Source: an archaeon (GTDB lineage Archaea; EX4484-52; B79-G9). From it: DNA of 25,456 nt. The stretch covers positions 1 through 25,456 of the forward strand of contig JBDRKP010000056.1 of assembly GCA_043813875.1 (NCBI GenBank). The letters run 5' to 3'. The stretch's first letter is position 1. Each line of letters begins with the position of its first letter. The translations under genes were made by a program, and so were the position numbers. Below the pieces are notes generated by a model. That model had not been told where the DNA came from. It saw nothing but the letters and a program-made list of their open reading frames with translations, and made no database searches. Positions 3,628 to 25,456 of this stretch are shown piece after piece.

Positions 3628-5769
3628 TCAATATGCTCTTGCGAAGTAGACCATGTGCTTTGCCGGTTTTTTGCAGCAGACGCATGTGGCCTTGCTCTCC
3701 AGTTTGCTCTTGCTGTTGCTGTCGAATGGGATTAATCTTGCGGTCGCTCCTGTCTCTTCCTTGATCTTCTCTTCGCAGCCAGGGCTTTCGCACCAGCCGG
3801 CAAGGATGAAGCCGTTCTCTATATTTTTTTTGAATTCAGCCATGTCTTTTGCTTTGAATATGCTCTTTTCGAGGAAGGCCTTTGCTTTGCTGAACATGTC
3901 TTTCTGCATGGCATCTAGCGCTTTTTTTGTCTCTGCTACCAGGTCTTTTTCTTTTATGAATGATTTGGCGCCTGTGTCGCGCCTGACGAGCACAACCTGG
4001 CCTTTTTCCATGTCCCTTGGGCCAAGCTCAATCCTTATAGGGATGCCTTTCAGTTCCCATTCGTTGTATTTGAAGCCGGCCTTGTGCTCTTCGCGGTCGT
4101 CCAGGATGACGGTGTGGCCTTCTATTTCCAGGGCGGCTTTCAGCTCTTTTGATTTTTCGATTGTCTCTTTTTTTGTCTTGTCAAATATTATCGGGACTAT
4201 GACTACGTGCGTCGGGGCTATCTGTGGCGGCATCACTAGGCCCTTGTCGTCTGAGTGGACCATTATGAGCCCGCCTATCAGGCGTGTCGAGATCCCCCAC
4301 GAGGTCTGCCAGACGTGCTTTGTCTGTTCGTCTTCGTCTATGAATTTTATGTCGAAGGCTTTTGCGAAGTTCTGGCCGAGGTGGTGGGATGTGCCTGCTT
4401 GGAGCGCTTTCTTATCCGGCATGAGCGCCTCAAGCGTTGTCGTGTATAGAGCGCCTGCGAATTTCTCGGATTCGGTCTTCTTTCCTGTGAGTACGGGTAT
4501 CGCAAGGACGTTCTCTATGAGGTCGCGGTATAGCTCTAGGATTGTCATGACTTCCCTGTCTGCGTCCTCTTTTGTCGCGTGGGCAGTGTGGCCTTCCTGC
4601 CACAAAAATTCTCTTGTTCTCAGGAAAGGTTTTGCGTGCTTGAATTCCCATCTCACTACGTTGCACCACTGGTTCAACAGAAGCGGGAGGTCGCGGTGGG
4701 ACCTTATCCATTTGGAGTATGATTCGTACATGATGGTCTCTGATGTAGGCCTTATTGCGAGGCGCTCATCCAGTTCGGTCTCGCCGGCATGCGTCACCCA
4801 TGCGACTTCGGGGGTGAAGCCTTTGACGTGCTCCTGCTCTTTGGTGAGGAGCTTTTCGGGAATCAACAGCGGAAAATACACATTCTTGTGGCCGAGGGCC
4901 TTTATCTTTTTGTCGACGTAGGACTGAATCTTTTCCCAGATGCTGTATGAGTTGGGTCTGAACACTATGCAGCCTGATACGGATGAGTAGTCTGCGAGCT
5001 CTGCTTTCTTTATGAGCTGGGTATACCATTCCGAGAAGTCTTCATTCTTCTTTACTGTCAGTCCAAGGTCCTGTATGTCTTTTTCTTTTTTTTCTGCCAT
5101 CATTGTCACCGCATTTTTGAATATTTCTATATCTCTCGCTTTCCCGCCTGCAAAGCGCGTTATCAGTTCTATTGTTTGGTCGAGCGCTTTATTAAGGTTT
5201 TGTTCATGAACTGACACTGCGTATATGTTGATGAGGAGGTTTTTTGTTGATTGTGTGACTTTTGCGAGTTCAGACGATGATGTCGATATGCCGAGGTCGA
5301 GTATCTTTTTTTCGTCTGCCACTACGAGTTCGTTTTTCAATGTGATGTTTTCTTTTGTGCCTATGCTTATGAATTTTTCGTTGTCTGCATCTCTTATTGT
5401 GATGCCGCCTTCTATCTTGTCGAGGTCGTAGGCGCCTATGGAGTAGCCGGTCTGTACGGAGATCGCGTTCATGGCGTCGACTACGTTGTTTATGTTGTAT
5501 AGGTGCTTGTCTTTCAAGACTCTTCTTATCAGGGCGTCGCCTGAGGAGCGGTATCGGTAGTAGTCCATGCCGTGCTTTTTCCAGAGGTTGTGGTAGTTTT
5601 TGAATATCTTTTCGTCTTTTAGGGTGTCGAGGTTCCATGCCGATTTTGCTGCTTTTTCTGCTTGTCTCATGATGTCTTTTAGCTCGTTGTCTGACGGCCT
5701 TACGGTTATGCCTGTGACGGTTGCGCTTGCCACTATTATCGGGTCGCCTGTCTTGAAAGTTATTTTCAT
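3628..5769 (-). CDS. proS: Proline--tRNA ligase (archaeal/eukaryotic type) with an N-terminal B3/4 (PheRS-beta editing-like) domain
   Basis: From residue ~224: FSEWY, RPTSET, RWEFK…FLRTREFLWQEGH, QAGTSHHLGQNF, TSWGISTR, WELKGIPIRIE and C-terminal YFARAY. Residues 1-~215 carry B3/4 motifs (YRSSGDALIRR, INNVVDAMNAIS, IGAYDLDKI). Confidence 0.95.
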   Translation of the reverse strand: MKITFKTGDPIIVASATVTGITVRPSDNELKDIMRQAEKAAKSAWNLDTLKDEKIFKNYHNLWKKHGMDYYRYRSSGDALIRRVLKDKHLYNINNVVDAMNAISVQTGYSIGAYDLDKIEGGITIRDADNEKFISIGTKENITLKNELVVADEKKILDLGISTSSSELAKVTQSTKNLLINIYAVSVHEQNLNKALDQTIELITRFAGGKARDIEIFKNAVTMMAEKKEKDIQDLGLTVKKNEDFSEWYTQLIKKAELADYSSVSGCIVFRPNSYSIWEKIQSYVDKKIKALGHKNVYFPLLIPEKLLTKEQEHVKGFTPEVAWVTHAGETELDERLAIRPTSETIMYESYSKWIRSHRDLPLLLNQWCNVVRWEFKHAKPFLRTREFLWQEGHTAHATKEDADREVMTILELYRDLIENVLAIPVLTGKKTESEKFAGALYTTTLEALMPDKKALQAGTSHHLGQNFAKAFDIKFIDEDEQTKHVWQTSWGISTRLIGGLIMVHSDDKGLVMPPQIAPTHVVIVPIIFDKTKKETIEKSKELKAALEIEGHTVILDDREEHKAGFKYNEWELKGIPIRIELGPRDMEKGQVVLVRRDTGAKSFIKEKDLVAETKKALDAMQKDMFSKAKAFLEKSIFKAKDMAEFKKNIENGFILAGWCESPGCEEKIKEETGATARLIPFDSNSKSKLESKATCVCCKKPAKHMVYFARAY

Positions 5770-5813
5770 TGTGATTGCCTTTGATTTGGTTTTATGTCAC
5801 CTGTCTTTATGAA

Positions 5814-6455
5814 TCACCTGAATATGGCGCTTCCTATCCGCACCATGTTTGCGCCTTCTTCTATCGCTTCCATGTAGTCGCCTGACATGCCCATGGAGAG
5901 ATAGTCCAGTCTTCTTTTAAGTATTTTTTCTGAGTCTTTAAGATATGAATGCATCGCATGATAATATGGCCTCGATTCATCCGGATTCCCATCGAATGGT
6001 GTGATTGTCATGAGGCCGCGTATCTTTATGTGTTTTAGGGTGCCTATTTTGAGCAGGAGTTCATTGAGGTCTTTTGGGGCAACTCCTGTGCTTTTTTGGG
6101 GGTCTGTTTTTACTTGGATGAGTATGTCCTGGATTTTGTTCATATGCTCTGCGGCGTTGTTTATCTTTTCTGTAAGCTTATATGAGTCCACACTCTGAAT
6201 TAGTAGGGGATTTAGTCCTACTACTTTTTTTGCCTTGTTTTTCTGGAGGGTGCCGATGAAGTGCGTTTTCGTGTCTTCTTTGATGCGGGGCGCAATCTCT
6301 TCCATCTGCTGGTATGTGTTGAATCCGATGTGGGTAATGCCTGCATCGAGGGCGGCCTTTATCTGGTCAGAAGTTGCGTATTTGACTGCTGCGACGAGCG
6401 TTGCCTTCCCGCCTATCTCTTTTTGTATCTTCTCGATGTTTTCTCTGATCGGCAT
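5814..6455 (-). CDS. yggS: YggS/PLPBP pyridoxal phosphate homeostasis protein
   Basis: LVAAVKY (PLP Lys), HFIGTLQKNK, QSVDS, GLMTI, LSMGMSGDY and VRIGSAIF motifs. Confidence 0.92.
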   Translation of the reverse strand: MPIRENIEKIQKEIGGKATLVAAVKYATSDQIKAALDAGITHIGFNTYQQMEEIAPRIKEDTKTHFIGTLQKNKAKKVVGLNPLLIQSVDSYKLTEKINNAAEHMNKIQDILIQVKTDPQKSTGVAPKDLNELLLKIGTLKHIKIRGLMTITPFDGNPDESRPYYHAMHSYLKDSEKILKRRLDYLSMGMSGDYMEAIEEGANMVRIGSAIFR

Positions 6456-14614: not shown

Positions 14615-15796
14615 TCATTTTATGTGTCTTATAAGGGTGGCGAGCTTAGGATATTTCAAGAATATCTTTATTGCCTTATGAATCTTGCCATTAAGCAAGT
14701 CACATATATCCTGAGGGGTGATGGTATCTGCGAGCATGTTCATGTCTGAGTCGGTCAATTTTTCTAATATATTCACGATTTTTTCGACATTGGACAGAGT
14801 GTTTCCTCTCTTCTTATACCATAGCCCATTGTATTTATTCAGTGTCTTTTGCGATGTGTCGCCGGTAAAGATGGCCTCATTTATTACTTCTGCTGCAATC
14901 TCTGCCGAATATGCGGATTCTTCGAGGCCGCCGCCATGAAGAGGATTTACCTGGTGGGCAGCATCACCAACTGCAAGGAAATTGTCTGTTGTCATGGATT
15001 TTAGAAAACCGCCGATGGGTATTGCGCCGGCGTTCTCTTCGATTATAGAGCCTTTTTTTATGCCTGGCTGGGTTTCTATCCATCTGTCAAGGTAGTATTT
15101 GGCTGTCTTTTCGTCTTTTACACAGGCTCCGATGCCGACGTTGGCTATGTGGCTGCCTTTGGGAAATATCCAGATGTATCCGCGCGGAGCAATACTTGAG
15201 CCCAGATAGATGCATACTTTGTGCGGGTCTTTAAGGTCGATGTTTGCCATCTCATACTGGTAACCGGGCTCTATTGTCCTGAGGGTGTTTTTTGTCTTCA
15301 GGCCTGCGAGTCTTGCAATCTTTGATTCTACTCCTTCTGCAGAGACTATTATCCTGCCGCTGATCTCTTTTTGTTCGCCGTTGTAGATCACTTTTACGCC
15401 ACTTATCATGCCGCCGGTTCTTATCAGGTCGATAACGTCTGCTTTTGTGTATATTTTTGCGCCTGATTTTGCGGCGTCGTATGCAAGAAACTTGTCGAAT
15501 ACTTTTCTTTCGATGATGAAGCCGTGCGGGTGTGCAGCTATTTCAATTGAGTGGCCGTTTGGCGCGAATATCATGCTGGCGTTTATTGTCTGGTTGACAA
15601 ATCGCTCTTTTCCGGTGTAGCCTAATTTGAACAGGTTTTCTGAAAGACCTATGCCTTCTGCGCATCTTTTAGGGGAACCTATCTCTGGCCTTTTCTCAAG
15701 AACCAATACTTTGAGGCCATGTTCTGCGCATCTTCTTGCGGTTATTGTGCCTGCGGGGCCAGCGCCGATTATTATTACGTCGTATTTCTGGTCCAT
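14615..15796 (-). CDS. Geranylgeranyl reductase family flavoprotein (DGGGPL reductase-like), paralog 1
   Basis: GAGPAG, PKRCAEG, YIWIFP (YxWxFP) and GDAAHQVNPLHGGG motifs; AGGTGA SD upstream. Confidence 0.92.
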   Translation of the reverse strand: MDQKYDVIIIGAGPAGTITARRCAEHGLKVLVLEKRPEIGSPKRCAEGIGLSENLFKLGYTGKERFVNQTINASMIFAPNGHSIEIAAHPHGFIIERKVFDKFLAYDAAKSGAKIYTKADVIDLIRTGGMISGVKVIYNGEQKEISGRIIVSAEGVESKIARLAGLKTKNTLRTIEPGYQYEMANIDLKDPHKVCIYLGSSIAPRGYIWIFPKGSHIANVGIGACVKDEKTAKYYLDRWIETQPGIKKGSIIEENAGAIPIGGFLKSMTTDNFLAVGDAAHQVNPLHGGGLEESAYSAEIAAEVINEAIFTGDTSQKTLNKYNGLWYKKRGNTLSNVEKIVNILEKLTDSDMNMLADTITPQDICDLLNGKIHKAIKIFLKYPKLATLIRHIK

Positions 15797-15903
15797 TTTA
15801 TTTCACCTGTTAGATCTCTTTTAATTAATATGTTCTGACGGGGCAGAAACGGGCACTAATACCAGACTCACTATAGTCGTTCTTGTCTTTATTTTTTATT
15901 TTC

Positions 15904-15938
15904 TTCGAAAATTCAGCAAATCGACGATTTGCCCGGAT
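15904..15938. repeat. Second copy of the 35-nt hairpin motif seen at 12781-12815
   Basis: ttcgaaaat-tca-gcaaatc-gac-gatttgc-cc-ggat aligns without gaps to ttcgaaaat-cct-atgaatc-gat-gattcat-aa-ggat. Confidence 0.65.
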
Positions 15939-15977
15939 GGATGAAGGCAAGTTGGTTTGTTGGTAAGTTTTCTTCAT

Positions 15978-17174
15978 TTATTTCTTGCCTTCACTATAGT
16001 TCAAATACTTCACGAAGGTTGCGAGCTTTGGATTCTTTATCAGGATCTTTAGCAGCTTGTGTGTCTTGCCGCATGCAAGGTCAACTATGTCCTGACCGCT
16101 GAATGCTTTTGTAATCATGTTTAAATCGGAATCAGATACCCGACGGTATATATTTACTACTTTTTCGACATCCTGTAATTTCTTCCCTCTTTTTTCCCAC
16201 CATAGGGTGTTGTATGTGTCAAGAGCAGCCTTTGACGTGTCGCATGAATCAATCGCCTGTTTTATTACAGCAGATGCAATCTCGGCGGAAAATGAGGCTT
16301 CTTGGAGGCCGCCGCCATGAAGAGGGTTTACCTGGTGGGCTGCATCGCCCACAGCAAGGAAATTATCTGTTGTCATGACGCTGAGGAAACCTCCTACAGG
16401 GATTGCGCCGCAATTCTCTTCGATTATTGAGCCTTTTTTTATTTCCGGATGAGTATCAATCCAGTTGTCAAGATAATATTTGGCGGTCTTTTCGTGATTG
16501 CTGCCAATACATATGCCTACGTTGGCGATATGAGCACCTTTGGGGAATATCCAGATATATCCGCCGGGAGCAATGCCGGTGCCGACATAGAAATATAGTT
16601 TGTGATGGTCACTGATATCTATGTTTGCCATCTCATACTGATAGCCTGCGTCTAGTGTGTTTTTTGTGTTTCTTGTGGGAAGCCCGGCTATTCTTGAGAT
16701 CTTTGATTCTACTCCGTCTGCGGCAACGAGCATATTGCCATATATCTCTTTCTGTTCTCCGTTATAGTTCACCCTTACGCCGGAGATGATGCCGTCTGTG
16801 CGAATCAAATCGAATGCATCGGCTTTTGTGTAGATTTTCGCCCCTGCTTTTGATGCGTCGTATGCCAGATATTTGTCAAATACCTTGCGCTCGAGGACGT
16901 AGCCGCCCTGGCCGCCGGGCAATTCTATTGAACTGCCGTCGGGGGTGATAAACAGGCCGCCGTCTATTGTCTGTGCAATGAATTGCTCTTTTCCTGTGTA
17001 GCCGAGGCGCTCTAAGTCCTGATGGCCAATGCCTTCTGCACAGCGTTTGGGTGCGCCGATTTCTGGCCTCTTTTCGAGAACGAGCACTTTAAGGCCGTAT
17101 TCTGCGCATTTTTTTGCGGTTATTGTGCCTGCAGGACCTGCGCCTATTATTATTACGTCGTATCTTTGATCCAT
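15978..17174 (-). CDS. Geranylgeranyl reductase family flavoprotein (DGGGPL reductase-like), paralog 2
   Basis: Same motifs as paralog 1; 45 of the first 50 aa are identical to it. Confidence 0.92.
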   Translation of the reverse strand: MDQRYDVIIIGAGPAGTITAKKCAEYGLKVLVLEKRPEIGAPKRCAEGIGHQDLERLGYTGKEQFIAQTIDGGLFITPDGSSIELPGGQGGYVLERKVFDKYLAYDASKAGAKIYTKADAFDLIRTDGIISGVRVNYNGEQKEIYGNMLVAADGVESKISRIAGLPTRNTKNTLDAGYQYEMANIDISDHHKLYFYVGTGIAPGGYIWIFPKGAHIANVGICIGSNHEKTAKYYLDNWIDTHPEIKKGSIIEENCGAIPVGGFLSVMTTDNFLAVGDAAHQVNPLHGGGLQEASFSAEIASAVIKQAIDSCDTSKAALDTYNTLWWEKRGKKLQDVEKVVNIYRRVSDSDLNMITKAFSGQDIVDLACGKTHKLLKILIKNPKLATFVKYLNYSEGKK

Positions 17175-17185
17175 TCAGTCACACT

Positions 17186-17368
17186 CTAGAGGTTTGTGGT
17201 AAGTCTCAATGCGCCTACTGGACAGAAGATGGTGCATGTGGCGCATTCTGTGCACTGGTTTTTGTCGACTATGATCATCATGTCTTTTAATGTGAGGGCG
17301 TCTTTCGGGCATATCGAGACGCAGCCGCCGCATGACAAGCATCTGCTTTTGTTGACGTTTAATACCAT
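17186..17368 (-). CDS. 2[4Fe-4S] dicluster ferredoxin
   Basis: CLSCGGCVSICP and CTECATCTIFCP; 11 nt upstream of GGR paralog 2. Confidence 0.93.
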   Translation of the reverse strand: MVLNVNKSRCLSCGGCVSICPKDALTLKDMMIIVDKNQCTECATCTIFCPVGALRLTTNL

Positions 17369-17581: not shown

Positions 17582-18097
17582 ATGAGCCCTAAAGATGACA
17601 ACTGTTTTGGAAGTAAAGGTCCTGAGGTTTCAAAGAAGGTGGCGGATGATTGTGAGCCCACCACTAATATCGCAAACAAGGATCATGCCAAGAAGGATAC
17701 TGTGACCATAAATGAAAAGGAGAAGAGCGTCTTGTTGTCTCTTAATCCAAGGCTCTACCCACAGACTGCCGTGATGAGGGCATCTTACAGGTTCATCGAT
17801 GATTTTGATGTGATTGTTGACGGTGATCCGCTTTCTATTATCTTTGTGACGATAAAGGCAAAGGCGGAGGATGATGCGTCCCTCTCAGAACTTGAGGAAC
17901 TTGCGCACGCTTTTTTTAAGGAGCTTATCCATGCCAATGTCGAGGAGACGCAGGCGCGAAGGTATGCTGATACGAGGAATGCGCTTATCGGCGCGTCGCT
18001 TAGGAGCATGATGCCTTCTCTTGCTCTAAAGGAAAAGGAAAGCGAGATGGTGAAGGTAAAGGAAAAGAAAGAGAATAAGAAATCTAATTCCTGCTGA
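17582..18097 (+). CDS. hxsD: HxsD-like protein (His-Xaa-Ser system accessory protein)
   Basis: LYPQTAVMRASYRFIDDF…IFVTI…FFKELI…TRNALIGASL fits the HxsD pattern as I recall it (LY…A.Y.F.D…F..EL…R..LI..AL); the HxsB/HxsC-like neighbours support this. Confidence 0.72.
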   Translation: MSPKDDNCFGSKGPEVSKKVADDCEPTTNIANKDHAKKDTVTINEKEKSVLLSLNPRLYPQTAVMRASYRFIDDFDVIVDGDPLSIIFVTIKAKAEDDASLSELEELAHAFFKELIHANVEETQARRYADTRNALIGASLRSMMPSLALKEKESEMVKVKEKKENKKSNSC

Positions 18098-18113: not shown

Positions 18114-19172
18114 CTATGGTGGGCAGGGGAGGTAAGGGCTGACGTGTTTTTTGAATACGTCACAAGTGATGCATCCCTGCTTTTTGTTTCCGTTGTTCAG
18201 TATGGCTGCTTTTTTCAGCAATGTGTCGCAGTAGGTGCAGCTTTCGCAGTCTAATGCGCATTTTTGCATGGTGTTGAAGAAGTCAAGCCTGTCGAGGACT
18301 TTGTTGTTTATGAAGGTGAACATGCATTTCATGCCGGTCATGTCGAGAAGGTCTAAGAGGTCGCCGTTGTATTGCTCGTCTATGTAGGCTTTTAATGTGG
18401 TCTCTATCTGTGGTGTCGTGAATGTCCTTGTGGCCAGCTTGAAGTAATCAGTGAAGGGCTTGTAGTGCTTTATGTCTTCGGGCCTTATGAATGGTATCCT
18501 GAATACTTTTTTTGGGTCTTTTCTTATGACTGTTATGCAGGAGTGCGCAAGGAACTGGGCGTCGGGTGTCCTGTGGGCTATCGAGTTGAAATGCATAAGC
18601 CTAAAGGGGCAGTTGCTTAGGCAGCCCTCGTTCAGCAGGAGCTTGATTTTCAGGCCTGTGGCTTTCTTTATATTTTTTATGAGGTCCAGGTCACGGTTTA
18701 TGTCGCGGTCCAATGTCAGGACGTCTATACCCATGTCTTTCAGGTACAGGGCGTCCTCTATTTTTGAGGTGTAGCAGTTCACGGATGAGTGGAGTTCCAG
18801 TTCTGGGATAGTATTTTTAATTTCTGTTATGTAGAATGGGTTTGTTATGGCGGCGCTTTTCAGGCCGATTTTTGCGAGATTGTTTAGGTAATCGGTCACT
18901 TTTTTCATGCGGGCCGTGTTGCCGCATCTCTTGGCTTCGCATGTTGCGTTGAGAAGGATCTGCGAGTTGATGCCGTTCTTTTCGCAGGTCTTTATAACGG
19001 TCCGGATGTTTTCACGATAGTCTTTTTCTATGGGGCGGAACCTGCCTGTTGAAAGGTACTCGGGCGGTATCGGGAAATATAGGCAATCGACGCTGTCGCT
19101 GTAGGCTTCAAGGAGTTCCAGCATCAATAGGTCATTGTTGTAGCCAATTGAATATCTTGTCTTTTTTGCCAT
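18114..19172 (-). CDS. Peptidase U32 family Fe-S protein (putative O2-independent hydroxylase)
   Basis: LLNATC, HSSVN, LDRDINRD, LLNEGCLSNCP, FIRPED and FKLATR motifs, plus C-terminal CxxxCxxCxxC and CxxC. Confidence 0.8.
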   Translation of the reverse strand: MAKKTRYSIGYNNDLLMLELLEAYSDSVDCLYFPIPPEYLSTGRFRPIEKDYRENIRTVIKTCEKNGINSQILLNATCEAKRCGNTARMKKVTDYLNNLAKIGLKSAAITNPFYITEIKNTIPELELHSSVNCYTSKIEDALYLKDMGIDVLTLDRDINRDLDLIKNIKKATGLKIKLLLNEGCLSNCPFRLMHFNSIAHRTPDAQFLAHSCITVIRKDPKKVFRIPFIRPEDIKHYKPFTDYFKLATRTFTTPQIETTLKAYIDEQYNGDLLDLLDMTGMKCMFTFINNKVLDRLDFFNTMQKCALDCESCTYCDTLLKKAAILNNGNKKQGCITCDVFKKHVSPYLPCPP

Positions 19173-19251
19173 CAGTTTTATTTAGCTGCGATAAAAATTT
19201 ATATGAGGGCGTACAATTGTTAGTATCAGATATATTGGGATGTTGAGATTC
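19173..19251. promoter_or_regulatory. Short divergent promoter region shared by the U32 gene and the precursor-rSAM operon
   Basis: One AT block taaaaatttatat (19192-19204) is readable as TATA on both strands; palindrome acaattgt at 19213-19220. Confidence 0.5.
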
Positions 19252-19551
19252 ATGGGCATACGCGATAAGATAAAGAAAATCAGGAAGTGCGAGATATTCA
19301 AGATCGCTGGAAATGAGAAAACAGGGGTTGTCAATAGCCTTGTATTGCTCGGGTCTATCGGTGCTCTTCTTGCCGTGGTTGAGCATGAGGTGGAGGCAGT
19401 CACATGCGATGCCAATAGCGAGATATCGGATACTGATTTAGAGCCTGTCGGACCTGTGATTGATGCAAGCCGGTGGAAAAATCACTGCTGGAACTGGTCT
19501 TGGTGCTGGAGCTGGGGATGGGGTTGGGATAATTCAAGCAGCAGTGAGTAA
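19252..19551 (+). CDS. Putative RiPP precursor with a C-terminal alternating Trp-Xaa core
   Basis: 99 aa (103 from ATG 19240): basic N-terminus, hydrophobic segment, acidic linker, then RWKNHCWNWSWCWSWGWGWDNSSSSE; directly upstream of two radical SAM genes. Confidence 0.85.
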   Translation: MGIRDKIKKIRKCEIFKIAGNEKTGVVNSLVLLGSIGALLAVVEHEVEAVTCDANSEISDTDLEPVGPVIDASRWKNHCWNWSWCWSWGWGWDNSSSSE

Positions 19552-19572
19552 CCCTTTCTGGTGATTGTCATA

Positions 19573-20523
19573 ATGGAGCCGGTAAAGACTGAGCGGAATG
19601 ATGCGGCACATCAACTTAAATTAGACGGTATCGTCTATTTCTCTTTGGGACTTGCGTGTGACAATGCATGCCTTCATTGCGTGGCTGAACACCGCAATGT
19701 CGATACATGGAATTCAAGAGAGAATATGAATACCTGTGAAGTTGTTTCATATTTTGACAGGATAAGCGGGAATAAGAATCTTACGCTTGAGATTTCGGGT
19801 GGGGAGCCGACGATCAGAAATGATTTCCTATACCTGATGGAATACCTGTCCATCAATGCACCGTGGATCAAGAAGATATTGCTGACCAATGGAAGGTCTT
19901 TTTCTAATGCTGATTTCACGTCGAGGGCCGCACTTTATCCACCGGAGTGCAGCCTTGTGCCGCTGCACGCCCATGAACCGAAACTCCATGATATGATAAC
20001 AAGACGTGCCGGGAGTTTCAATGAGACTGTTCTTGGCATACGAAATATGTTCGAATATGGAATGATGGTAATCCCGAAGATCGTGGCGAACAGGCTGAAC
20101 TATAAGATACTGCCGGATTTTGTGGAGTTTGTGGCGCAGAATTTCCCGGAAGCAAAGACGGTCGGCATCGATACGATGGATGTCTCGGGGGCCGCTGAGA
20201 TGAACAAGGACAGGATAGCGGTCAAACACAGCACTGTTGCCCCATACATGGAGAAAGCGATGGATACGGCTGTAAAGTACGGGATGCATGTCAATGCCAT
20301 ATATATGCCTTTCTGCCTCGTGGGCGAGAAATACAGGCAGTATATATGGGAAGGCGCTTCGATTGTCATGTACAAGGACTCTCATGGTGAAACTGTGGAT
20401 ATCAGAGGAGAGCGCGGAGTCGTCGAGGCATGTGGAGAATGCAGGTACATAGGTAGATGTCCGGGTAGCTGGTTCACCTATTTCAAGGAGTTCGGGGCAG
20501 AGGAACTGAAGCCAGTCGTGTGA
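19573..20523 (+). CDS. Radical SAM protein, HxsC-like
   Basis: CDNACLHC, SGGEPT, LTNGRSF, HDMITRRAGSFNETVLGI, PFCL and C-terminal CxxCxxxxxCxG. GGTGA at 19560-19564 precedes ATG 19573. Confidence 0.85.
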   Translation: MEPVKTERNDAAHQLKLDGIVYFSLGLACDNACLHCVAEHRNVDTWNSRENMNTCEVVSYFDRISGNKNLTLEISGGEPTIRNDFLYLMEYLSINAPWIKKILLTNGRSFSNADFTSRAALYPPECSLVPLHAHEPKLHDMITRRAGSFNETVLGIRNMFEYGMMVIPKIVANRLNYKILPDFVEFVAQNFPEAKTVGIDTMDVSGAAEMNKDRIAVKHSTVAPYMEKAMDTAVKYGMHVNAIYMPFCLVGEKYRQYIWEGASIVMYKDSHGETVDIRGERGVVEACGECRYIGRCPGSWFTYFKEFGAEELKPVV

Positions 20524-20575: not shown

Positions 20576-22009
20576 ATGTTTATGGAGAGCCACATAGTAT
20601 CTCTGATAGATAAAGAGCATGAAAACCAGGATAATGGTCTTCTGCTAAACGAATATTTCCAGAAAAAACTGGGCAACGGCAGAATGCTTGTTGCGACCCG
20701 GCACGGCTCATGGTCTATCCTTTCACTTGAACAGTATGAGGCATTGCGGAGTGGAGAATTCGCCAAGGATAAAATACTTTGTCGCGAACTCAAGGAGAAA
20801 GGCATCATCCTTGATGAAAACTCTGTCCATAAGATTGTTGATGCGTTCAGGGAGAATTATCATTGTCTTGCCGATGCGCGACCTCTGTGTATCGTTTACC
20901 TGACCAACAGGTGCAACCTGAACTGCGAATACTGCCTTTCGGATACGAATGATATTGACGATGCAGATGACCTGTCTTATGAGATGATGGAGGATATTAT
21001 CAATTTCATCGCAAAGATGCCGCATGCTCACATAGCGCTCGAATTCCAGGGCGGCGAGACGCTCCTCTGCTTTGATATGCTGAAGAAATTCCTTCTGCGG
21101 TTCGATGAGAGGATGAAGGCTGCCGGAAAGGTCGTGGACTCGAAGGTCGTCGTGTCCAATCTTACGCTCATGAATGAGGAGATCGCTCTGTTCATCCTGA
21201 AGAACAATATCGGACTTTGCTCTTCTCTTGACGGGCCGAGGGAGCTTCATGATGCGAACAGGAAGTATCCTGACGGGCAGGGGTCTTATGATGCGGTCAT
21301 GAAGGGGATTGATTTTTTTGCAAAAATAGGGCGAAAGATTCCCTTAATGCCGACAATCACAGCGGAGTCTCTTAAGCTTGACCCGAAGGCGATTGTGGAT
21401 GAGTACAGGAAAGCCGGGCTTGATCATATTGTCCTTCGGCCGGTGTGTCCTATCGGGAGGGCGCGCAGCGGGTCGCTTTTGATGGAGCCGAAGGATTATT
21501 TTGAGTTCTGGAAGAAGGCTCTTGATTACATGATCGCTCTTTCTATGGACGGGAATGTGTTCTATGATAAGACTGTACAGGATATGCTGGTTGCGATATT
21601 TACGACCAGGAGGCAGAACATGTGCATGAGGCGGCCGTGCGGCGCCGGCATCAACCATTTCGCGTTCTATCTTGACGGCTCAATCTATGCATGCGATAAC
21701 GGGAAAAAGATGGATGCTTTTAAGCTCGGAAATGTTTGTGAGTCCAGTTATGAAGATGTCTTTCTGAATACATTGCAGCTTCGGGCAAATACAACTGAAT
21801 TCCAGCCGCTTTGCGATACGTGCGTGTATGGCGCTTTCTGCGGGTCGTGCATGTGCAAGTCTTATGCGAGGTCAGGAAAAGTGGTGCCTATGACTCCGAT
21901 GGATTTCGACTGCAAGATCAATAAGATGATGTTTGATCATATTTTCGATAAGATGGATGATCCAACATATCGGACTGTGTTTGAGATGTGGGTACGGCTG
22001 AAAGCATGA
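20576..22009 (+). CDS. Radical SAM/SPASM peptide maturase, HxsB-like
   Basis: N-terminal extension (TRHGSWSILS…LKEKGII), CNLNCEYC, LEFQGGE, SLDGPRELHDANR, RPCGAGI…DGSIYACD and CDTCVYGAFCGSC…C. Confidence 0.88.
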   Translation: MFMESHIVSLIDKEHENQDNGLLLNEYFQKKLGNGRMLVATRHGSWSILSLEQYEALRSGEFAKDKILCRELKEKGIILDENSVHKIVDAFRENYHCLADARPLCIVYLTNRCNLNCEYCLSDTNDIDDADDLSYEMMEDIINFIAKMPHAHIALEFQGGETLLCFDMLKKFLLRFDERMKAAGKVVDSKVVVSNLTLMNEEIALFILKNNIGLCSSLDGPRELHDANRKYPDGQGSYDAVMKGIDFFAKIGRKIPLMPTITAESLKLDPKAIVDEYRKAGLDHIVLRPVCPIGRARSGSLLMEPKDYFEFWKKALDYMIALSMDGNVFYDKTVQDMLVAIFTTRRQNMCMRRPCGAGINHFAFYLDGSIYACDNGKKMDAFKLGNVCESSYEDVFLNTLQLRANTTEFQPLCDTCVYGAFCGSCMCKSYARSGKVVPMTPMDFDCKINKMMFDHIFDKMDDPTYRTVFEMWVRLKA

Positions 22010-22920
22010 TTGAAGCGTATTTTTTGAAGGTCATAGCATTCGCTTTGATACTCTGGGTTCTCGGATTGTTCGGGAGACAGTCAATCTTTTTGTATGTATT
22101 GTTCTCTTCTGTCTCTTTTTTTGTGAGGCCGGTCGAAGCTATGCCTGAATTCATGATATCTGCCATCTTTGTGTTTCTTTTTCTGTATGTGATATCCACT
22201 ACTGTCAGGAATTCTTTCAGGAGCGGTTTTTTGAGGTTTTCAAAGCATGCTCTTCTGCAATCCTACAGGAAAAGGAGCGTGGTCTATTCTGTGTTCGTTG
22301 TGTCTTTTCTTATGATGCTTGCTGGCATCGGCGACAGGACTCTGCTTTTTTTAGGGAGCTTTTTTGGGTTTCTTGCCCTCGGGCTTCTTTCCAAAAGCGT
22401 GAGCTTCGCAAGATATGACTGTTACGGGATAATCAATTATAGGAATGCTTTCATTGCTGCTCTTTTCTATGCAGCTTATCATTCCATGTACATGGAGATA
22501 TTTGTGGGCATGATCATCGGGATACTTTATCTTGCGCTTATTGTCATCTCTTCTCTTGTGTATGATACGTTCACTTTCGAGTGCCCTGTCGGGGCGCTTA
22601 AGGAGGGGATGGTGAGCGCGGATTATGTCGTGAAAAAAGACGGCAGGGTGTACAGGAAAGAGCTGAATAATGTCATCACGTTGCAGTCTTTTTTGAGGAG
22701 AAGGATAATGCTACGCGCAGAGGGTGAGGAGATTGTCATCAGTCCTCTTCGGGCGCTGTCAAAGAAGGATATTGATTTTTTGAAGAACATGAAAAAGGGC
22801 AGGGAGTTTGATTCTTTATGCGTGCAGAATACTGTGGATATGAGAGCCTTTGTCGTTGGGGGCATTATCCTTTCTACTGTTGTCTTTTATATTTACCCTT
22901 ATCTTGTCGTTTTTGTATAG
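22006..22920 (+). CDS. Polytopic membrane protein with a C-terminal region resembling archaeal A24 prepilin/preflagellin peptidases
   Basis: ATGA overlap with the hxsB-like stop; multiple TM segments; GIGD at 22324-22335; soluble insert beginning VGALKEGMV followed by a final TM helix. Confidence 0.6.
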   Translation: MIEAYFLKVIAFALILWVLGLFGRQSIFLYVLFSSVSFFVRPVEAMPEFMISAIFVFLFLYVISTTVRNSFRSGFLRFSKHALLQSYRKRSVVYSVFVVSFLMMLAGIGDRTLLFLGSFFGFLALGLLSKSVSFARYDCYGIINYRNAFIAALFYAAYHSMYMEIFVGMIIGILYLALIVISSLVYDTFTFECPVGALKEGMVSADYVVKKDGRVYRKELNNVITLQSFLRRRIMLRAEGEEIVISPLRALSKKDIDFLKNMKKGREFDSLCVQNTVDMRAFVVGGIILSTVVFYIYPYLVVFV

Positions 22921-22962: not shown

Positions 22963-25456
22963 CTATAATGTCTTGAATGTATCGGATAATGCTATCGATG
23001 AGATGCTCTGGGGGTTTGTCAGTTCGATCTGATAATAATAATCTGTGGCTGGATCGAGGCCGATGATTGTCAGCTCATGATGTGCTGCCAAGATGGATAT
23101 TGGCTCGCTATCGCCGTACATGATTGTTTTGCCATATCTGATAACACCGGTTGTCGGAACGTCTGTGTCGAAGGTTATCTTTGCGTCATTGGTTCCAGGC
23201 TCTATTGTGACGGATCCGACGATATTCGGCATATCAGTTATCATTAGATTAACTGTTGCCTCGGCAGGGTTTCCTGTGTTGGGTGTGGCTACGGCCTTTA
23301 TCCTATACATGCCTGTGTCAGTCACGGTTATTGCGCCGGTATATGGCGATGATGAGCCCGGCGAGGCTATCGGAGGACCGTAGGTGCCTGTATCAGAGTC
23401 AAACACGAAGAATTCTACTGAGACTATGCCGGATGAATGGCGGGCGTCTACTGTCAATGTTACAGGGTTATCTACTGTTTCGCCGTCAAGCGGGGAGGTT
23501 ATGTTTATGAATGGATCTGATGTGTCTATACCGGCGATGAATGTGTATTCGGATGATGTGACTGTCTCTGTGCCGTCGCTCGATTCGACGATTATGTAGT
23601 AGTCCTGTTCCGCAATCAGGCCGCCGATTCCGATGCTGTGTGCAAGAAGCTCTGTGGGGTCGGTGATGTCCGTGTACGGGCCGCCGGCTGTCGTGCTGTA
23701 TTTCAGCGTCGAGTCTGAGAGCCTGTTTGTTGTCCATTGGATTGTTACGGATGTTCCTGAAATAGATGCGGTCGGGCCGGATGTTATCTCGAACGGGCCT
23801 GAAAGTGCAAGCGATGGGGGGATTGTACCGTAAGGATTGTTGCATGATGAGCCGTGAGTGTCGCAGAAATGGGTGGCACCGGGTGGGCCGCAGCAGTTCA
23901 TGTCGACGATGGGCACGGTGACATAGAATCTGAACTTGAGCTTTTGCCAGTTGTTTGCCTCTGGATTATATATCTTGTTCCTGTCGTCTGTTATAGTCAC
24001 GAGGAATTTCAGGTTTTTCAGGATGTACCTGCGGTCGTAGTCCATGGTGCACCTGTTTACGTCTGCGTAATTGGTATGGCCACAGCCACCGCTGTCAGGT
24101 TCGCATGTGCAATCTCCGACATCAGCATATGTCGCCTTTATGTATTCAATGTATTCGAATTTTTCTGACTCGATGTGTTCTGCGGTGTCGCATGCGCCCT
24201 TGTTGACGTTGGTAGTGTCGTGGATAGTGTAATATGAGAGCAGGTATTGTATCTGCCATGTCACGCCCTCTGTTGCTGTCAGATCGTCATAATCTGATGC
24301 GAGCTGATTGAGGGCGGCGATGATCGATGTGTAGATCTCTGCGCTTGTATAGGATTTAACTTGGTCGTCCGGGCACCATGCCGGGTCTGTGCAGGTAGGA
24401 TAGCCGCAGTTCTCTCCGGATGGGCCGGAATGGGCGTTCATGTCTAAGTTATAGAGCATGTCCCAGAGGCGGCTCTGGAGGAGTGTCTGTGAGGTGTCTG
24501 TGAATCTTTCCGCGTAGCTGTAGAGTTTGTAGTAGCGGATTTTTACTTCTTCGGTTATGAGGCCGCTGTCGCGTATCTCGGCCAGATTTTTTGTGGGGTC
24601 CATGATATCTTTGACTGTGGCGGTTATCGCGCCCTGTGCCTCGTCGGGCCAGACGATGGCCTGGGTGTTATCATTGTTGCCTCTTGTCATTGAACAGTTG
24701 AGGGGGGCTATGTCTATCCTGATGTCTGCGTCTGCGTTGCGATCTGCCAGGACCGTGGCCATGCTTGCGTGATATTCGTTCAGGTATTGCCTGAGAAGGG
24801 CGTTCGGAGTTGTTATGACGGCTGGATTGTATATGGATGCTGTGATCTGCTTGACCATCGCGACGCCGTCTATGTCGCCGGTCTCGTTCTTTGCGGTTAT
24901 GTGTATTGATGTGGCGAACTCGTCTGCCTTTATTCTTGTGAGTTTGTAGGTGTAGATGCCGTCTTTGGTGATTGTAGGTGGGGTGGTGCCGACGGGCGCA
25001 AGCGAGAGGCATCCTTCGCTTCCAAGGCACGATACTGTGACTTGCCCTTTTTTGAGCATGAGAATCTGGATAGTTATATATAGGGGGTATTTGTCTGCAT
25101 TTATCTCGTCGATGTATTGCCTGTGGGCCTCATTGTTCAAGAAAAGCATAATAAAGCGGTCGCCTAGCATGGTGTTCACGTCGGTGTCTTTGAGGTAGGG
25201 GACGCGCTTCAATGTGTTTTCGCAGTTGGGCACTGTCCAGAAGGGGATCCTTGATAGGAACAGGAACTCGTTGCCGAGGAGGATTTTGGGCTCTTCAGAT
25301 ACTGTGCTGTCAGCGACATCATCGTTGTCTACGTCTATGAGTGACGCTTCTGCATGGCCGCCGTAGGTTGCGAGCTCTTTTGATGCCGAGTTCAATGAGA
25401 AGAAGGCGGCGGTCTTCAAGAAGCCCTGTTTCATGGCCTGGACTTCCTTGTCCATT
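22963..25456 (-). CDS. Large, probably extracellular protein with Cys-rich region and C-terminal FN3-like / Ig-like / FN3-like domains; 5' end probably outside the window
   Basis: 830-aa frame open to the window edge; VTIQWTTNRLSDSTLKY…GLIAEQDYYI, PFINITSPLDGETV…SVEF and AKITFDTDVPTTGVIRYG…GLDPATDYYY. Confidence 0.8.
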   Translation of the reverse strand, partial: MDKEVQAMKQGFLKTAAFFSLNSASKELATYGGHAEASLIDVDNDDVADSTVSEEPKILLGNEFLFLSRIPFWTVPNCENTLKRVPYLKDTDVNTMLGDRFIMLFLNNEAHRQYIDEINADKYPLYITIQILMLKKGQVTVSCLGSEGCLSLAPVGTTPPTITKDGIYTYKLTRIKADEFATSIHITAKNETGDIDGVAMVKQITASIYNPAVITTPNALLRQYLNEYHASMATVLADRNADADIRIDIAPLNCSMTRGNNDNTQAIVWPDEAQGAITATVKDIMDPTKNLAEIRDSGLITEEVKIRYYKLYSYAERFTDTSQTLLQSRLWDMLYNLDMNAHSGPSGENCGYPTCTDPAWCPDDQVKSYTSAEIYTSIIAALNQLASDYDDLTATEGVTWQIQYLLSYYTIHDTTNVNKGACDTAEHIESEKFEYIEYIKATYADVGDCTCEPDSGGCGHTNYADVNRCTMDYDRRYILKNLKFLVTITDDRNKIYNPEANNWQKLKFRFYVTVPIVDMNCCGPPGATHFCDTHGSSCNNPYGTIPPSLALSGPFEITSGPTASISGTSVTIQWTTNRLSDSTLKYSTTAGGPYTDITDPTELLAHSIGIGGLIAEQDYYIIVESSDGTETVTSSEYTFIAGIDTSDPFINITSPLDGETVDNPVTLTVDARHSSGIVSVEFFVFDSDTGTYGPPIASPGSSSPYTGAITVTDTGMYRIKAVATPNTGNPAEATVNLMITDMPNIVGSVTIEPGTNDAKITFDTDVPTTGVIRYGKTIMYGDSEPISILAAHHELTIIGLDPATDYYYQIELTNPQSISSIALSDTFKTL

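Follow-up and report, generated by a model that had tools for sequence, protein, structure and literature searches.

A tryptophan ladder at the C-terminus of a putative Hxs-type radical-SAM substrate from a DPANN archaeon

The 25,456-nt stretch of archaeal DNA analyzed here, referred to below as the window (contig JBDRKP010000056.1 of assembly GCA_043813875.1), encodes a small protein whose C-terminus carries tryptophan (Trp) at every second position, seven times in succession. We favor, with moderate confidence, the interpretation that this Trp ladder is the C-terminal core of a substrate of ~99 residues, modified by a divergent archaeal radical S-adenosylmethionine (radical-SAM) system of the Hxs type and then exported for a role in the cell envelope. 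The ladder protein is probably a Trp variant of the Hxs substrate HxsA. By its alignments and gene order, the precursor gene is conserved, is co-operonic with genes for an HxsC-like and an HxsB-like enzyme, and has a leader homologous to that of substrates bearing HxS repeats.

The ladder was confirmed at the level of the DNA. As the original prediction had described, seven TGG codons can be read at exact 6-nt steps (19489, 19495, 19501, 19507, 19513, 19519, and 19525; ladder span 19489-19527), and the spacer codons between them (AAC, TCT, TGC, AGC, GGA, and GGT) do encode both serine (TCT/AGC) and glycine (GGA/GGT) with two different codons each. An eighth TGG is located at 19474. All of the ladder codons are in frame with a plus-strand open reading frame (ORF) at 19240-19551, the gene for the HxsA-like, Trp-type precursor, which encodes at most 103 residues and ends in SRWKNHCWNWSWCWSWGWGWDNSSSSE followed by a stop codon at 19549-19551. 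Tandem Repeats Finder detected no DNA repeat within 19400-19600. Six-frame translation of the assembly (G000; 1.64 Mb in 90 contigs, 91.5% complete, yielding 3.27 million residues) identified this as the sole period-2 run of at least four Trp in the genome, compared with a chance expectation, calculated from a Trp frequency of 0.0118, of ~1e-7 runs of seven and 0.06 runs of four.

A word-indexed search of 5.8 billion proteins, together with BLASTP, identified nine homologues of the precursor (97-162 residues, E-values of 1e-26 to 1e-37, 57-68% identity by BLASTP), whose source names include Candidatus Aenigmarchaeota, Nanohalarchaeota, Woesearchaeota, and Diapherotrites, that is, DPANN archaea. 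In the alignment of the 10 orthologues (57-69% identity), W79, N81, H82, C83, W84, W86, W88, W90, and W92 are invariant, as are C56, E61, I62, and T65, and C91 is nearly so. In contrast, the residues between the ladder Trp differ (N/S/G, S/G, C/G, C/S, and S/G/T). Because the Trp are invariant while the spacers vary, selection appears to act on the Trp positions, and the alignment thus indicates that the Trp spacing is under selection at the protein level, as had been proposed from the codons. Across all period-2 members the ladder comprises 4 to 9 Trp. The expectation that orthologous precursors would conserve the spacing was borne out within the orthologous clade but did not extend to more distant members of the family, which use periods of 3 and 5. 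M5 and a leader motif, T-G-V-V-N-S-L, are also invariant in the alignment and, given the conservation of M5, the ATG at 19252 is most likely the true start of the precursor, giving a protein of 99 residues.

The precursor can be divided into a basic N-terminal segment, GIRDKIKKIRKCEIFK (residues 5-21; 19252-19302, plus strand), which is conserved in both Trp-type and HxS-type members of the family; a hydrophobic stretch (residues 30-47, with a mean Kyte-Doolittle value of 2.49 over 15 residues) followed by V-E-A at residues 51-53 (19327-19398, plus strand); an acidic linker delineated from the orthologue alignment (residues 54-78; 19399-19473, plus strand), which contains C56 and a conserved GEI.DT motif; and the core (19474-19527, plus strand), in which W-K-N-H-C is followed by the seven-Trp ladder, WNWSWCWSWGWGW. 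Four parts are common to the family: the basic N-terminus, an acidic or K-T-G junction, a hydrophobic stretch of ~18 residues, and a small-x-small site. This site follows the hydrophobic stretch in 49 of 49 distinct members, 25 of which have a strict A-x-A. From this pattern, residues 30-53 are signal-peptide-like and could serve as a Sec-type signal peptide or a membrane anchor, and the basic N-terminal helix is probably the recognition part of the leader. AlphaFold2, run with the family alignment, predicted helices at residues 7-15 and 29-48 with a mean predicted local distance difference test (pLDDT) score of 56, and modeled the core as disordered (pLDDT <50 for residues 83-103). Complex prediction for the HxsD-like protein and the precursor scored 0.00 in two runs, which weighs neither for nor against an interaction. 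Domain-model searches assigned the precursor to no Pfam or NCBIfam family, and the ESM Atlas returned no match by features and, by structure, only matches with TM scores of at most 0.40.

The genes surrounding the precursor encode what appear to be relatives of the bacterial Hxs maturation enzymes. Beginning just 10 nt after the precursor stop codon is the gene for an HxsC-like radical-SAM enzyme (19561-20523, plus strand; 320 residues, with PF04055), for which TIGR03977 (HxsC) was the best of 32 NCBIfam matches, at 143.5 bits against a cut-off of 267.9. An HxsB-like radical-SAM enzyme with PF04055 and SPASM domains (20576-22009, plus strand; 477 residues) matches TIGR03978 (HxsB) over profile positions 7-466 of 466 at 322.4 bits (cut-off 370). 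The lesser NCBIfam matches of this enzyme include those to PapB (138.6 bits), DynA (111.8 bits, cut-off 450), GrrM/OscB (74 bits, cut-off 310), DarW (73.8 bits, cut-off 650), and YhhB (58.2 bits, cut-off 445), and no DarE model was present among the best 25 of its 69 matches. Upstream of the precursor, an HxsD-like small protein (17582-18097, plus strand) aligns with positions 3-88 of the 90 in the TIGR03976 profile, scoring 37.1 bits (cut-off 50), and the corresponding gene adjoins the substrate gene in most related loci. These results agree with the earlier suggestion that the neighboring enzymes are Hxs-like rather than DarE-like but, since the best NCBIfam scores fall below the cut-offs, the enzymes are best regarded as Hxs-like proteins outside the curated families. 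The genes for the precursor, the HxsC-like and HxsB-like enzymes, and the membrane protein that follows them are tightly spaced or overlapping.

An HxsB-like gene was found in 29 of the 61 genomes searched, counting G000, and in related loci with enough flanking sequence it is adjoined by small ORFs that share the leader of the window protein and differ in their cores. These cores include period-3 Wxx repeats (up to 10 consecutive in L024), DHCWW and DHxWW repeats (L025 and L065), and genuine HxS repeats (L028 and L032); the window protein contains no HxS repeat. The five-residue D-H-x-W-W repeat is present in 3-4 copies in L065 (1471-1818, minus strand), L060 (1495-1833, minus strand), and L069 (1312-1647, plus strand). 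A profile built from 17 family proteins retrieved only 23 proteins of 88-162 residues at E ≤0.001 from 1.84 billion representatives, and two of these 23 (P0006 and P0007) either belonged to the query alignment or closely resembled its rows. When 44 distinct tails were sorted by core, 16 showed a period-2 Trp run of at least four, 10 a period-3 Trp run of at least four, 9 an HxS run of at least three, and the other 9 are mixed. As the 17-protein profile contained both Trp and HxS types, the leaders were compared separately with hhalign, which matched 21 Trp-type to 7 HxS-type proteins over the N-terminal 42 columns with a probability of 85.7% and an E-value of 5.5e-6. The archaeal HxS-type members score just under the cut-off of the NCBIfam HxsA4 and HxsA3 models (best 50.6 vs 55 bits), and the Trp-type proteins match none of the HxsA, HxsA2, HxsA3, or HxsA4 models at E-values up to 10. 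In one archaeon outside the phylum (G049), an HxsA-like protein of ~425 residues is encoded right after the HxsB-like gene (L031 7230-8537, plus strand) and combines the same basic and hydrophobic N-terminus with an extended series of HxS repeats and a further ~300-residue domain at the C-terminus; by this architecture, it is a bridge between the archaeal short form and bacterial HxsA.

A maximum-likelihood tree of 24 HxsB-like proteins, rooted only at its midpoint, placed the enzymes associated with Trp-type substrates in a single clade (13 rows, support 99/99), within which the enzymes of period-2 systems form a subclade (3 rows, 100/100); the other clade comprises enzymes of HxS-type systems together with proteins named HxsB by PGAP (100/99). 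The separate clade of the Trp-type enzymes implies that enzyme and substrate type diverged together. The HxsC-like component varies as well. In period-3 systems it consists of two fused radical-SAM domains (587-611 residues; L024 4780-6615, L026 8045-9811, and L029 3892-5655), and in L025 it is encoded twice, flanking the substrate gene (4103-5068 and 5509-6405). In the ladder systems only one HxsC-like gene is present, along with a gene for a U32-like protein.

The phylum to which the source organism belongs consists of one order with 42 genomes, and 24 of these, including 6 of the 10 that are of high quality, contain a match to the substrate family at E ≤0.001. Within the phylum, several families carry the system almost universally, often in multiple copies. 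Period-2 ladders occur in six genomes (G000, G001, G003, G004, G012, and G041). Further period-2 ladders are present in P0141, P0142, and P0145. An alignment search of metagenome contigs recovered two true loci (L072 and L073) and three spurious ones, and a similar search with P0141 and P0142 found nothing. Five loci obtained with the former alignment on genome contigs were rejected as spurious, being either off-frame GC-rich reads or genes resembling those for penicillin-binding proteins with WGWGWCW. Bacteroidales proteins similar to penicillin-binding protein 4 share W-G-W-G-W-C-W-D-D-D (L040 203-2164, L041 98-1405, and L042 7455-8732); here a brief Trp run of period 2 is part of a folded enzyme that is not related. 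Precursor sequences and gene order are identical between contigs C63 and C64 of G041 and C36 and C9 of G004 (L034, L037, L022, and L068), and because the G041 contigs encode the proteins of G004 even though the two genomes are placed in different families, one of the two bins probably includes contigs from the other organism, and the G041 locus may be mis-binned. No RNA run was listed for the sampled words; groundwater-metagenome DNA runs carried 0.31 and 0.21 of them, from which we make no claim on habitat or expression.

Three further genes recur with the system. Between the HxsD-like gene and the precursor lies the gene for a U32-like iron-sulfur protein of 352 residues (18114-19172, minus strand), which matches PF01136 at 37.1 bits, above the cut-off of 22.4, although the match extends over just positions 1-86 of the 233 in the profile. 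An alignment of six sequences shows nine invariant Cys, including C184-x3-C188 and a C-terminal CX3CX2CX2C; a possible counterpart is the cluster-binding Cys motif given for U32 proteins in the available text of PMC6747719, CX6CX15CX3/4C. According to the available text of PMC6747719 and PMC10990095, U32 proteins include the iron-sulfur, O2-independent hydroxylases UbiU and UbiV. A U32-like gene occupies this position in 8 of 8 ladder loci (those of the six genomes plus L072 and L073) and does not do so in the other substrate loci examined, which have nothing extra (L023, L034, L049, L060, and L065), a second HxsC-like gene (L025 and L058), or the gene for a double-radical-SAM HxsC (L024, L026, and L029). 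By this gene order, the U32-like gene is an accessory specific to the ladder clade. The subfamily itself is widespread, with relatives outside the ladder clade (P0165-P0235, 45-54% identity) that are often fused to TPR domains in Omnitrophota, one of which (P0192) also lists a radical-SAM domain.

Downstream of the HxsB-like gene, and overlapping its stop codon by 22 nt, begins the gene for a multi-pass membrane protein with an Arc_PepC-like domain (21988-22920, plus strand; PF06819, 38.3 bits, cut-off 23.4). Homologues directly follow HxsB in L022, L023, L024, L026, and L029, and in L034 the homologue lies on the other side of the cluster, adjoining HxsD. The AlphaFold2 model of the membrane protein had a pLDDT of 77.5; Foldseek found no match to it in the PDB at E ≤0.001, and the best Z score in the wide VIA-align comparison (7.0) was among generic helical matches, so that the fold was not assigned beyond Arc_PepC. 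We considered whether this protein might be an active prepilin peptidase that cleaves a class-III-type signal in the precursor. The usual class-III signal junction is a basic residue followed by Gly or Ala, and the junction in the precursor is K-T-G. The membrane protein has no match to the A24 catalytic domain, and an alignment of eight sequences contains no invariant Asp, the G-I-G-D of the window protein not being conserved. This candidate function was rejected on both grounds, the junction and the lack of a conserved Asp, and by the latter the protein is not an active A24 peptidase.

Convergent with the membrane protein gene is that of a large surface protein with fn3 and Big_7 domains (22963-25455, minus strand), the 5' end of which is cut by the contig end. 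Homologues of this giant protein adjoin the system in eight loci and have been duplicated together with it. Where they are full length, they begin with a short basic N-terminus followed by a hydrophobic stretch, which we take to resemble archaeal pilin-type signals. The giant proteins share a K-Q-G-F-E-K-T-A motif (L022 5847-9155 on the minus strand, L023 3742-5766, L026 2529-5765, L027 3217-5463, L029 7938-10916, and L030 8126-10354), and their N-terminal 550-680 residues correspond to no Pfam family and gave no usable match in the ESM Atlas. A 2x[4Fe-4S] ferredoxin of 60 residues was identified by domain search at 17186-17368 (minus strand), and its homologues adjoin the system in L022, L034, L037, and L073. 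This ferredoxin may be an electron donor for the system, or may instead be part of the upstream geranylgeranyl reductase operon; in the window, tandem geranylgeranyl-reductase paralogues of 393 and 398 residues lie downstream of it (14615-17368, minus strand). G004 and G041 each harbor two paralogous systems, and each of these has its own membrane protein, giant protein, and neighboring ferredoxin gene, a co-duplication that argues that these genes work together.

The other neighboring genes in the window have housekeeping functions, with products that include prolyl-tRNA synthetase (ProRS), glutamine synthetase, a GMP synthase subunit, KsgA, and a prenyltransferase, as well as the two geranylgeranyl reductases. 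No mobile or defense genes were found among the remaining window genes, and no transporter, exporter, or dedicated leader protease among the nine neighbors that were scanned. The ProRS (3628-5769, minus strand) is an unusual fusion in which an N-terminal B3_4 domain (PF03483, 81.1 bits) precedes the class II core, the anticodon-binding domain, and the ProRS C-terminal domain.

Based on these data, a plausible course of events would begin with the maturation proteins binding the basic N-terminal leader helix as a recognition element, after which HxsB and HxsC, together with HxsD, would modify the aromatic repeat in the cytoplasm. The likeliest chemistry would be side-chain crosslinks over three-residue windows. 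In a period-2 repeat each Trp would close one such window and open another, and bridges joining W(i) to W(i+2) would therefore fuse. Fused i/i+2 Trp crosslinks, of which the original prediction envisaged up to six, fit the three-residue unit of the family (HxS and Wxx), a window also bridged by triceptide and darobactin enzymes, and are our leading guess, a tentative one that we would put well short of even. The conserved Cys may also take part in the modification, and the U32-like protein may add a step specific to the ladder clade. The hydrophobic segment and AxA-like site would then direct export, by cleavage or as a membrane anchor, placing the modified Trp-rich tail at the cell surface, where it may work with the membrane protein and the pilin-like giant protein as an envelope part, such as a barrier or an attachment, rather than as a diffusible antibiotic. 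A more elaborate version of this scheme, which we regard as very doubtful, posits that the ladder becomes a rigid, continuous poly-cyclophane strand in which as many as six rings, each closed between Trp(i) and Trp(i+2), are fused, and that the U32-like protein would, like its relatives UbiU and UbiV, supply oxygen without O2, so that ether bridges of the darobactin type could form anaerobically. The product would be a secreted block that assembles with the giant protein on the surface of the DPANN cell, and not an antibiotic, and the switch from a three-residue to a two-residue repeat would have been what first allowed the rings to fuse.

Several points weigh against the interpretation of the ladder as a modified and exported Hxs-type core. 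All three enzyme matches fall under the NCBI curated cut-offs and the substrate matches no HxsA model; with every score below its cut-off, membership in Hxs proper is not established. The only Hxs chemistry in the available text of PMC13128918 is a gain of 8 Da (+8 Da) on a single SHRSS motif, which is unexplained and unlike a simple crosslink, and the repeats of the family have periods of 2, 3, and 5, from which no single i/i+2 rule is evident. As all eight ladder loci belong to one clade, the association of the U32-like gene with the ladder could reflect inheritance alone, and the giant surface protein is linked to the system by synteny only. Finally, all of the genomes are incomplete metagenome-assembled genomes, and one of the ladder genomes is the possibly mis-binned G041.

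The bacterial system with which the window invites comparison is HXS (TIGR03978, TIGR03977, TIGR03976, and TIGR03979). Its models are those that the archaeal enzymes match best, along their whole length. Both contain a pair of radical-SAM enzymes, one of the SPASM type, together with a small HxsD or HxsD-like protein and a substrate whose repeat is of short period; the substrate also begins with an export signal, which in the archaeal protein is a putative one. In the available text of PMC13128918, bacterial HxsA is described as having a signal peptide, as requiring HxsB, HxsC, and HxsD for its N-terminal processing, and as acting in the periplasm after being matured in the cytoplasm and exported. 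The archaeal system differs in that its enzyme scores are below the curated cut-offs, its repeat is Trp-x rather than His-x-Ser, and it has three extra conserved partners (the U32-like protein, the membrane protein, and the giant surface protein). Its gene order is D-(U32)-A-C-B, compared to D-B-C-A in bacteria, and it is found in an archaeal host in a housekeeping context, whereas 99.7% of HXS systems are in Pseudomonadota (both comparisons from the available text of PMC13128918). The HxsA3 (NF038309) and HxsA4 (NF038313) families are similar in length (~80-95 residues), and the archaeal HxS-type members, which share their leader with the Trp types, match them from the N-terminus onward, unlike the Trp types themselves. 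The HxsC-like enzyme is also distant from HxsC4 (NF038332), which it matches at 82.2 bits against a cut-off of 500.

This homology raises the possibility that the ladder protein is an antiviral envelope effector, an archaeal counterpart of bacterial HXS defense in which a Trp-rich protein outside the membrane would block entry of the viral genome. According to the available text of PMC13128918, bacterial HXS is an anti-phage system whose effector is exported following radical-SAM maturation, and both the homology of the maturation proteins to HxsB, HxsC, and HxsD and that of the leader to HxS-type substrates would be in keeping with such a function, as would the diverse, fast-changing repeat cores, which would suit an arms race. 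However, the bacterial model in that text requires basic HxS repeats that bind DNA as well as a peptidoglycan-binding domain, whereas the core here is Trp-rich, the linker is acidic, and no peptidoglycan-binding domain is present. The genomic context is one of housekeeping genes, not a defense island, and PADLOC 2023 gave only weak generic radical-SAM (pVip) matches, with no Hxs model. Moreover, the system turns up in 24 of 42 genomes, most of them incomplete, and often more than once, which points to a core role in the envelope, even if defense would still be compatible with such a distribution. Because the system is near-universal, multi-copy, set among housekeeping genes, and tied to surface proteins, we lean toward an envelope component over an antiviral effector, a role that we consider unlikely without being far-fetched.

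It is also conceivable that the Trp residues are left unmodified and that the enzymes act on the conserved Cys, forming thioethers, or on other residues, with the bare ladder serving as a membrane-interface anchor or a Trp-zipper-like beta hairpin. The conservation of C56, C83, and C91 is consistent with this, and many members of the family have Cys near their repeats. Additionally, PapB, a maturase that forms thioethers in ranthipeptides, is the NCBIfam model that the HxsB-like enzyme matches best after HxsB, and the nearest solved structures are anSME (4k37) and the thioether-forming CteB (5wgg). Yet it is the aromatic repeat, and not Cys, that defines every member, the tails of the HxS-type proteins L032 and P0151 being without Cys, and the clade to which an enzyme belongs follows the aromatic type of its substrate. 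We view an unmodified Trp ladder as a rather unlikely outcome, and modification of the aromatic repeat remains the preferred interpretation.

The original prediction had drawn a specific link to darobactin, based on the W-N-W-S with which the ladder begins. Taken strictly, this would make the product a RiPP antibiotic, a peptide made on the ribosome and altered after translation: the leader would be removed to leave a short, rigid, Trp-crosslinked beta-strand mimic acting on another organism. The Trp-rich core with its W-x-W, the adjacent SPASM radical-SAM enzymes, the weak DynA and DarW matches of the HxsB-like enzyme, and a core predicted to be disordered before modification, as in RiPP precursors, speak for this reading. 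In the darobactin and dynobactin pathways (DarA/DarE and DynA), according to the available text of PMC9055067 and PMC10705402, fused crosslinks spanning three-residue windows are the work of a SPASM radical-SAM enzyme. Nevertheless, the N and S positions of W-N-W-S vary among the orthologues, which read WSWGW or WGWGW at the start of the ladder, and only the first four residues of the darobactin heptapeptide are matched, with no K-S-F. As N and S are not conserved, the match appears coincidental, bearing out the caveat, raised along with the link itself, that it might be convergent. The enzymes belong to another family, given that HxsB and HxsC match far better than DynA or DarW, and the precursor is long, with a signal-peptide-like segment, a conserved acidic linker of 25 residues, and a ladder of 13 residues. 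The organism is an archaeon of the DPANN group, the scanned neighbors include no exporter or dedicated leader protease, and the system, which almost all members of several families in the phylum possess, is inherited along with envelope proteins. A specific link to darobactin is not supported, and a darobactin-like antibiotic seems improbable.

Two other types of peptide bear some resemblance to the ladder. The triceptides (GrrM/OscB, TIGR04261, and YhhB, NF041707), whose radical-SAM enzymes form three-residue cyclophanes by joining an aromatic carbon to a C-beta, have repeated aromatic-x-x motifs in their precursors. The period-3 Wxx relatives look like such repeats, and W-x-W windows that overlap one another are one way to read the ladder; this likeness is one of repeat pattern only. 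Unlike the triceptides, whose maturase models match the HxsB-like enzyme at only 74 and 58.2 bits, the system here has two radical-SAM enzymes plus HxsD and a signal-peptide-like leader. Gramicidin A and the polytheonamide-type peptides form beta-helices, and in polytheonamide the alternating D/L configuration is produced by a radical-SAM epimerase. Trp at every second position is shared with these peptides, but the period-3 and period-5 members of the family do not fit an alternating D/L helix.

The notion that the ladder is a chance ORF or a low-complexity artifact, for which the absence of a Pfam or NCBIfam family and the low AlphaFold2 confidence might be cited, is already refuted by conservation and synteny, namely homologues with the same gene neighbors in several genomes and metagenome contigs, along with the ~1e-7 chance expectation and the differing synonymous spacer codons, and we give it essentially no credence.

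Our literature search turned up no account of a Trp-type substrate for Hxs enzymes or of an Hxs system in archaea, and the words archaea and tryptophan are absent from the text of PMC13128918. While Hxs-type maturation itself is known, the Trp-type Hxs substrate, as defined by these sequences, would thus be new as a kind of substrate. The Hxs enzymes have long been present in annotation databases, and the one functional study reports the unexplained +8 Da. A single leader that carries HxS, Wxx, DHxWW, or Wx cores, each with its own enzyme clade, offers a natural series for dissecting enzyme recognition and products, and Trp-rich cores are easily followed by ultraviolet absorbance, fluorescence, and mass spectrometry. 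If a crosslink were indeed formed at every second residue, the ladder would be the longest fused cyclophane scaffold known. More broadly, the system would carry the Hxs theme from bacterial anti-phage defense into the archaea, and its occurrence in more than half of the available genomes of the phylum, where every copy is accompanied by a membrane protein and a giant protein of its own, implies that it is likely to make up a large and so far undescribed share of the envelope in these tiny archaea.

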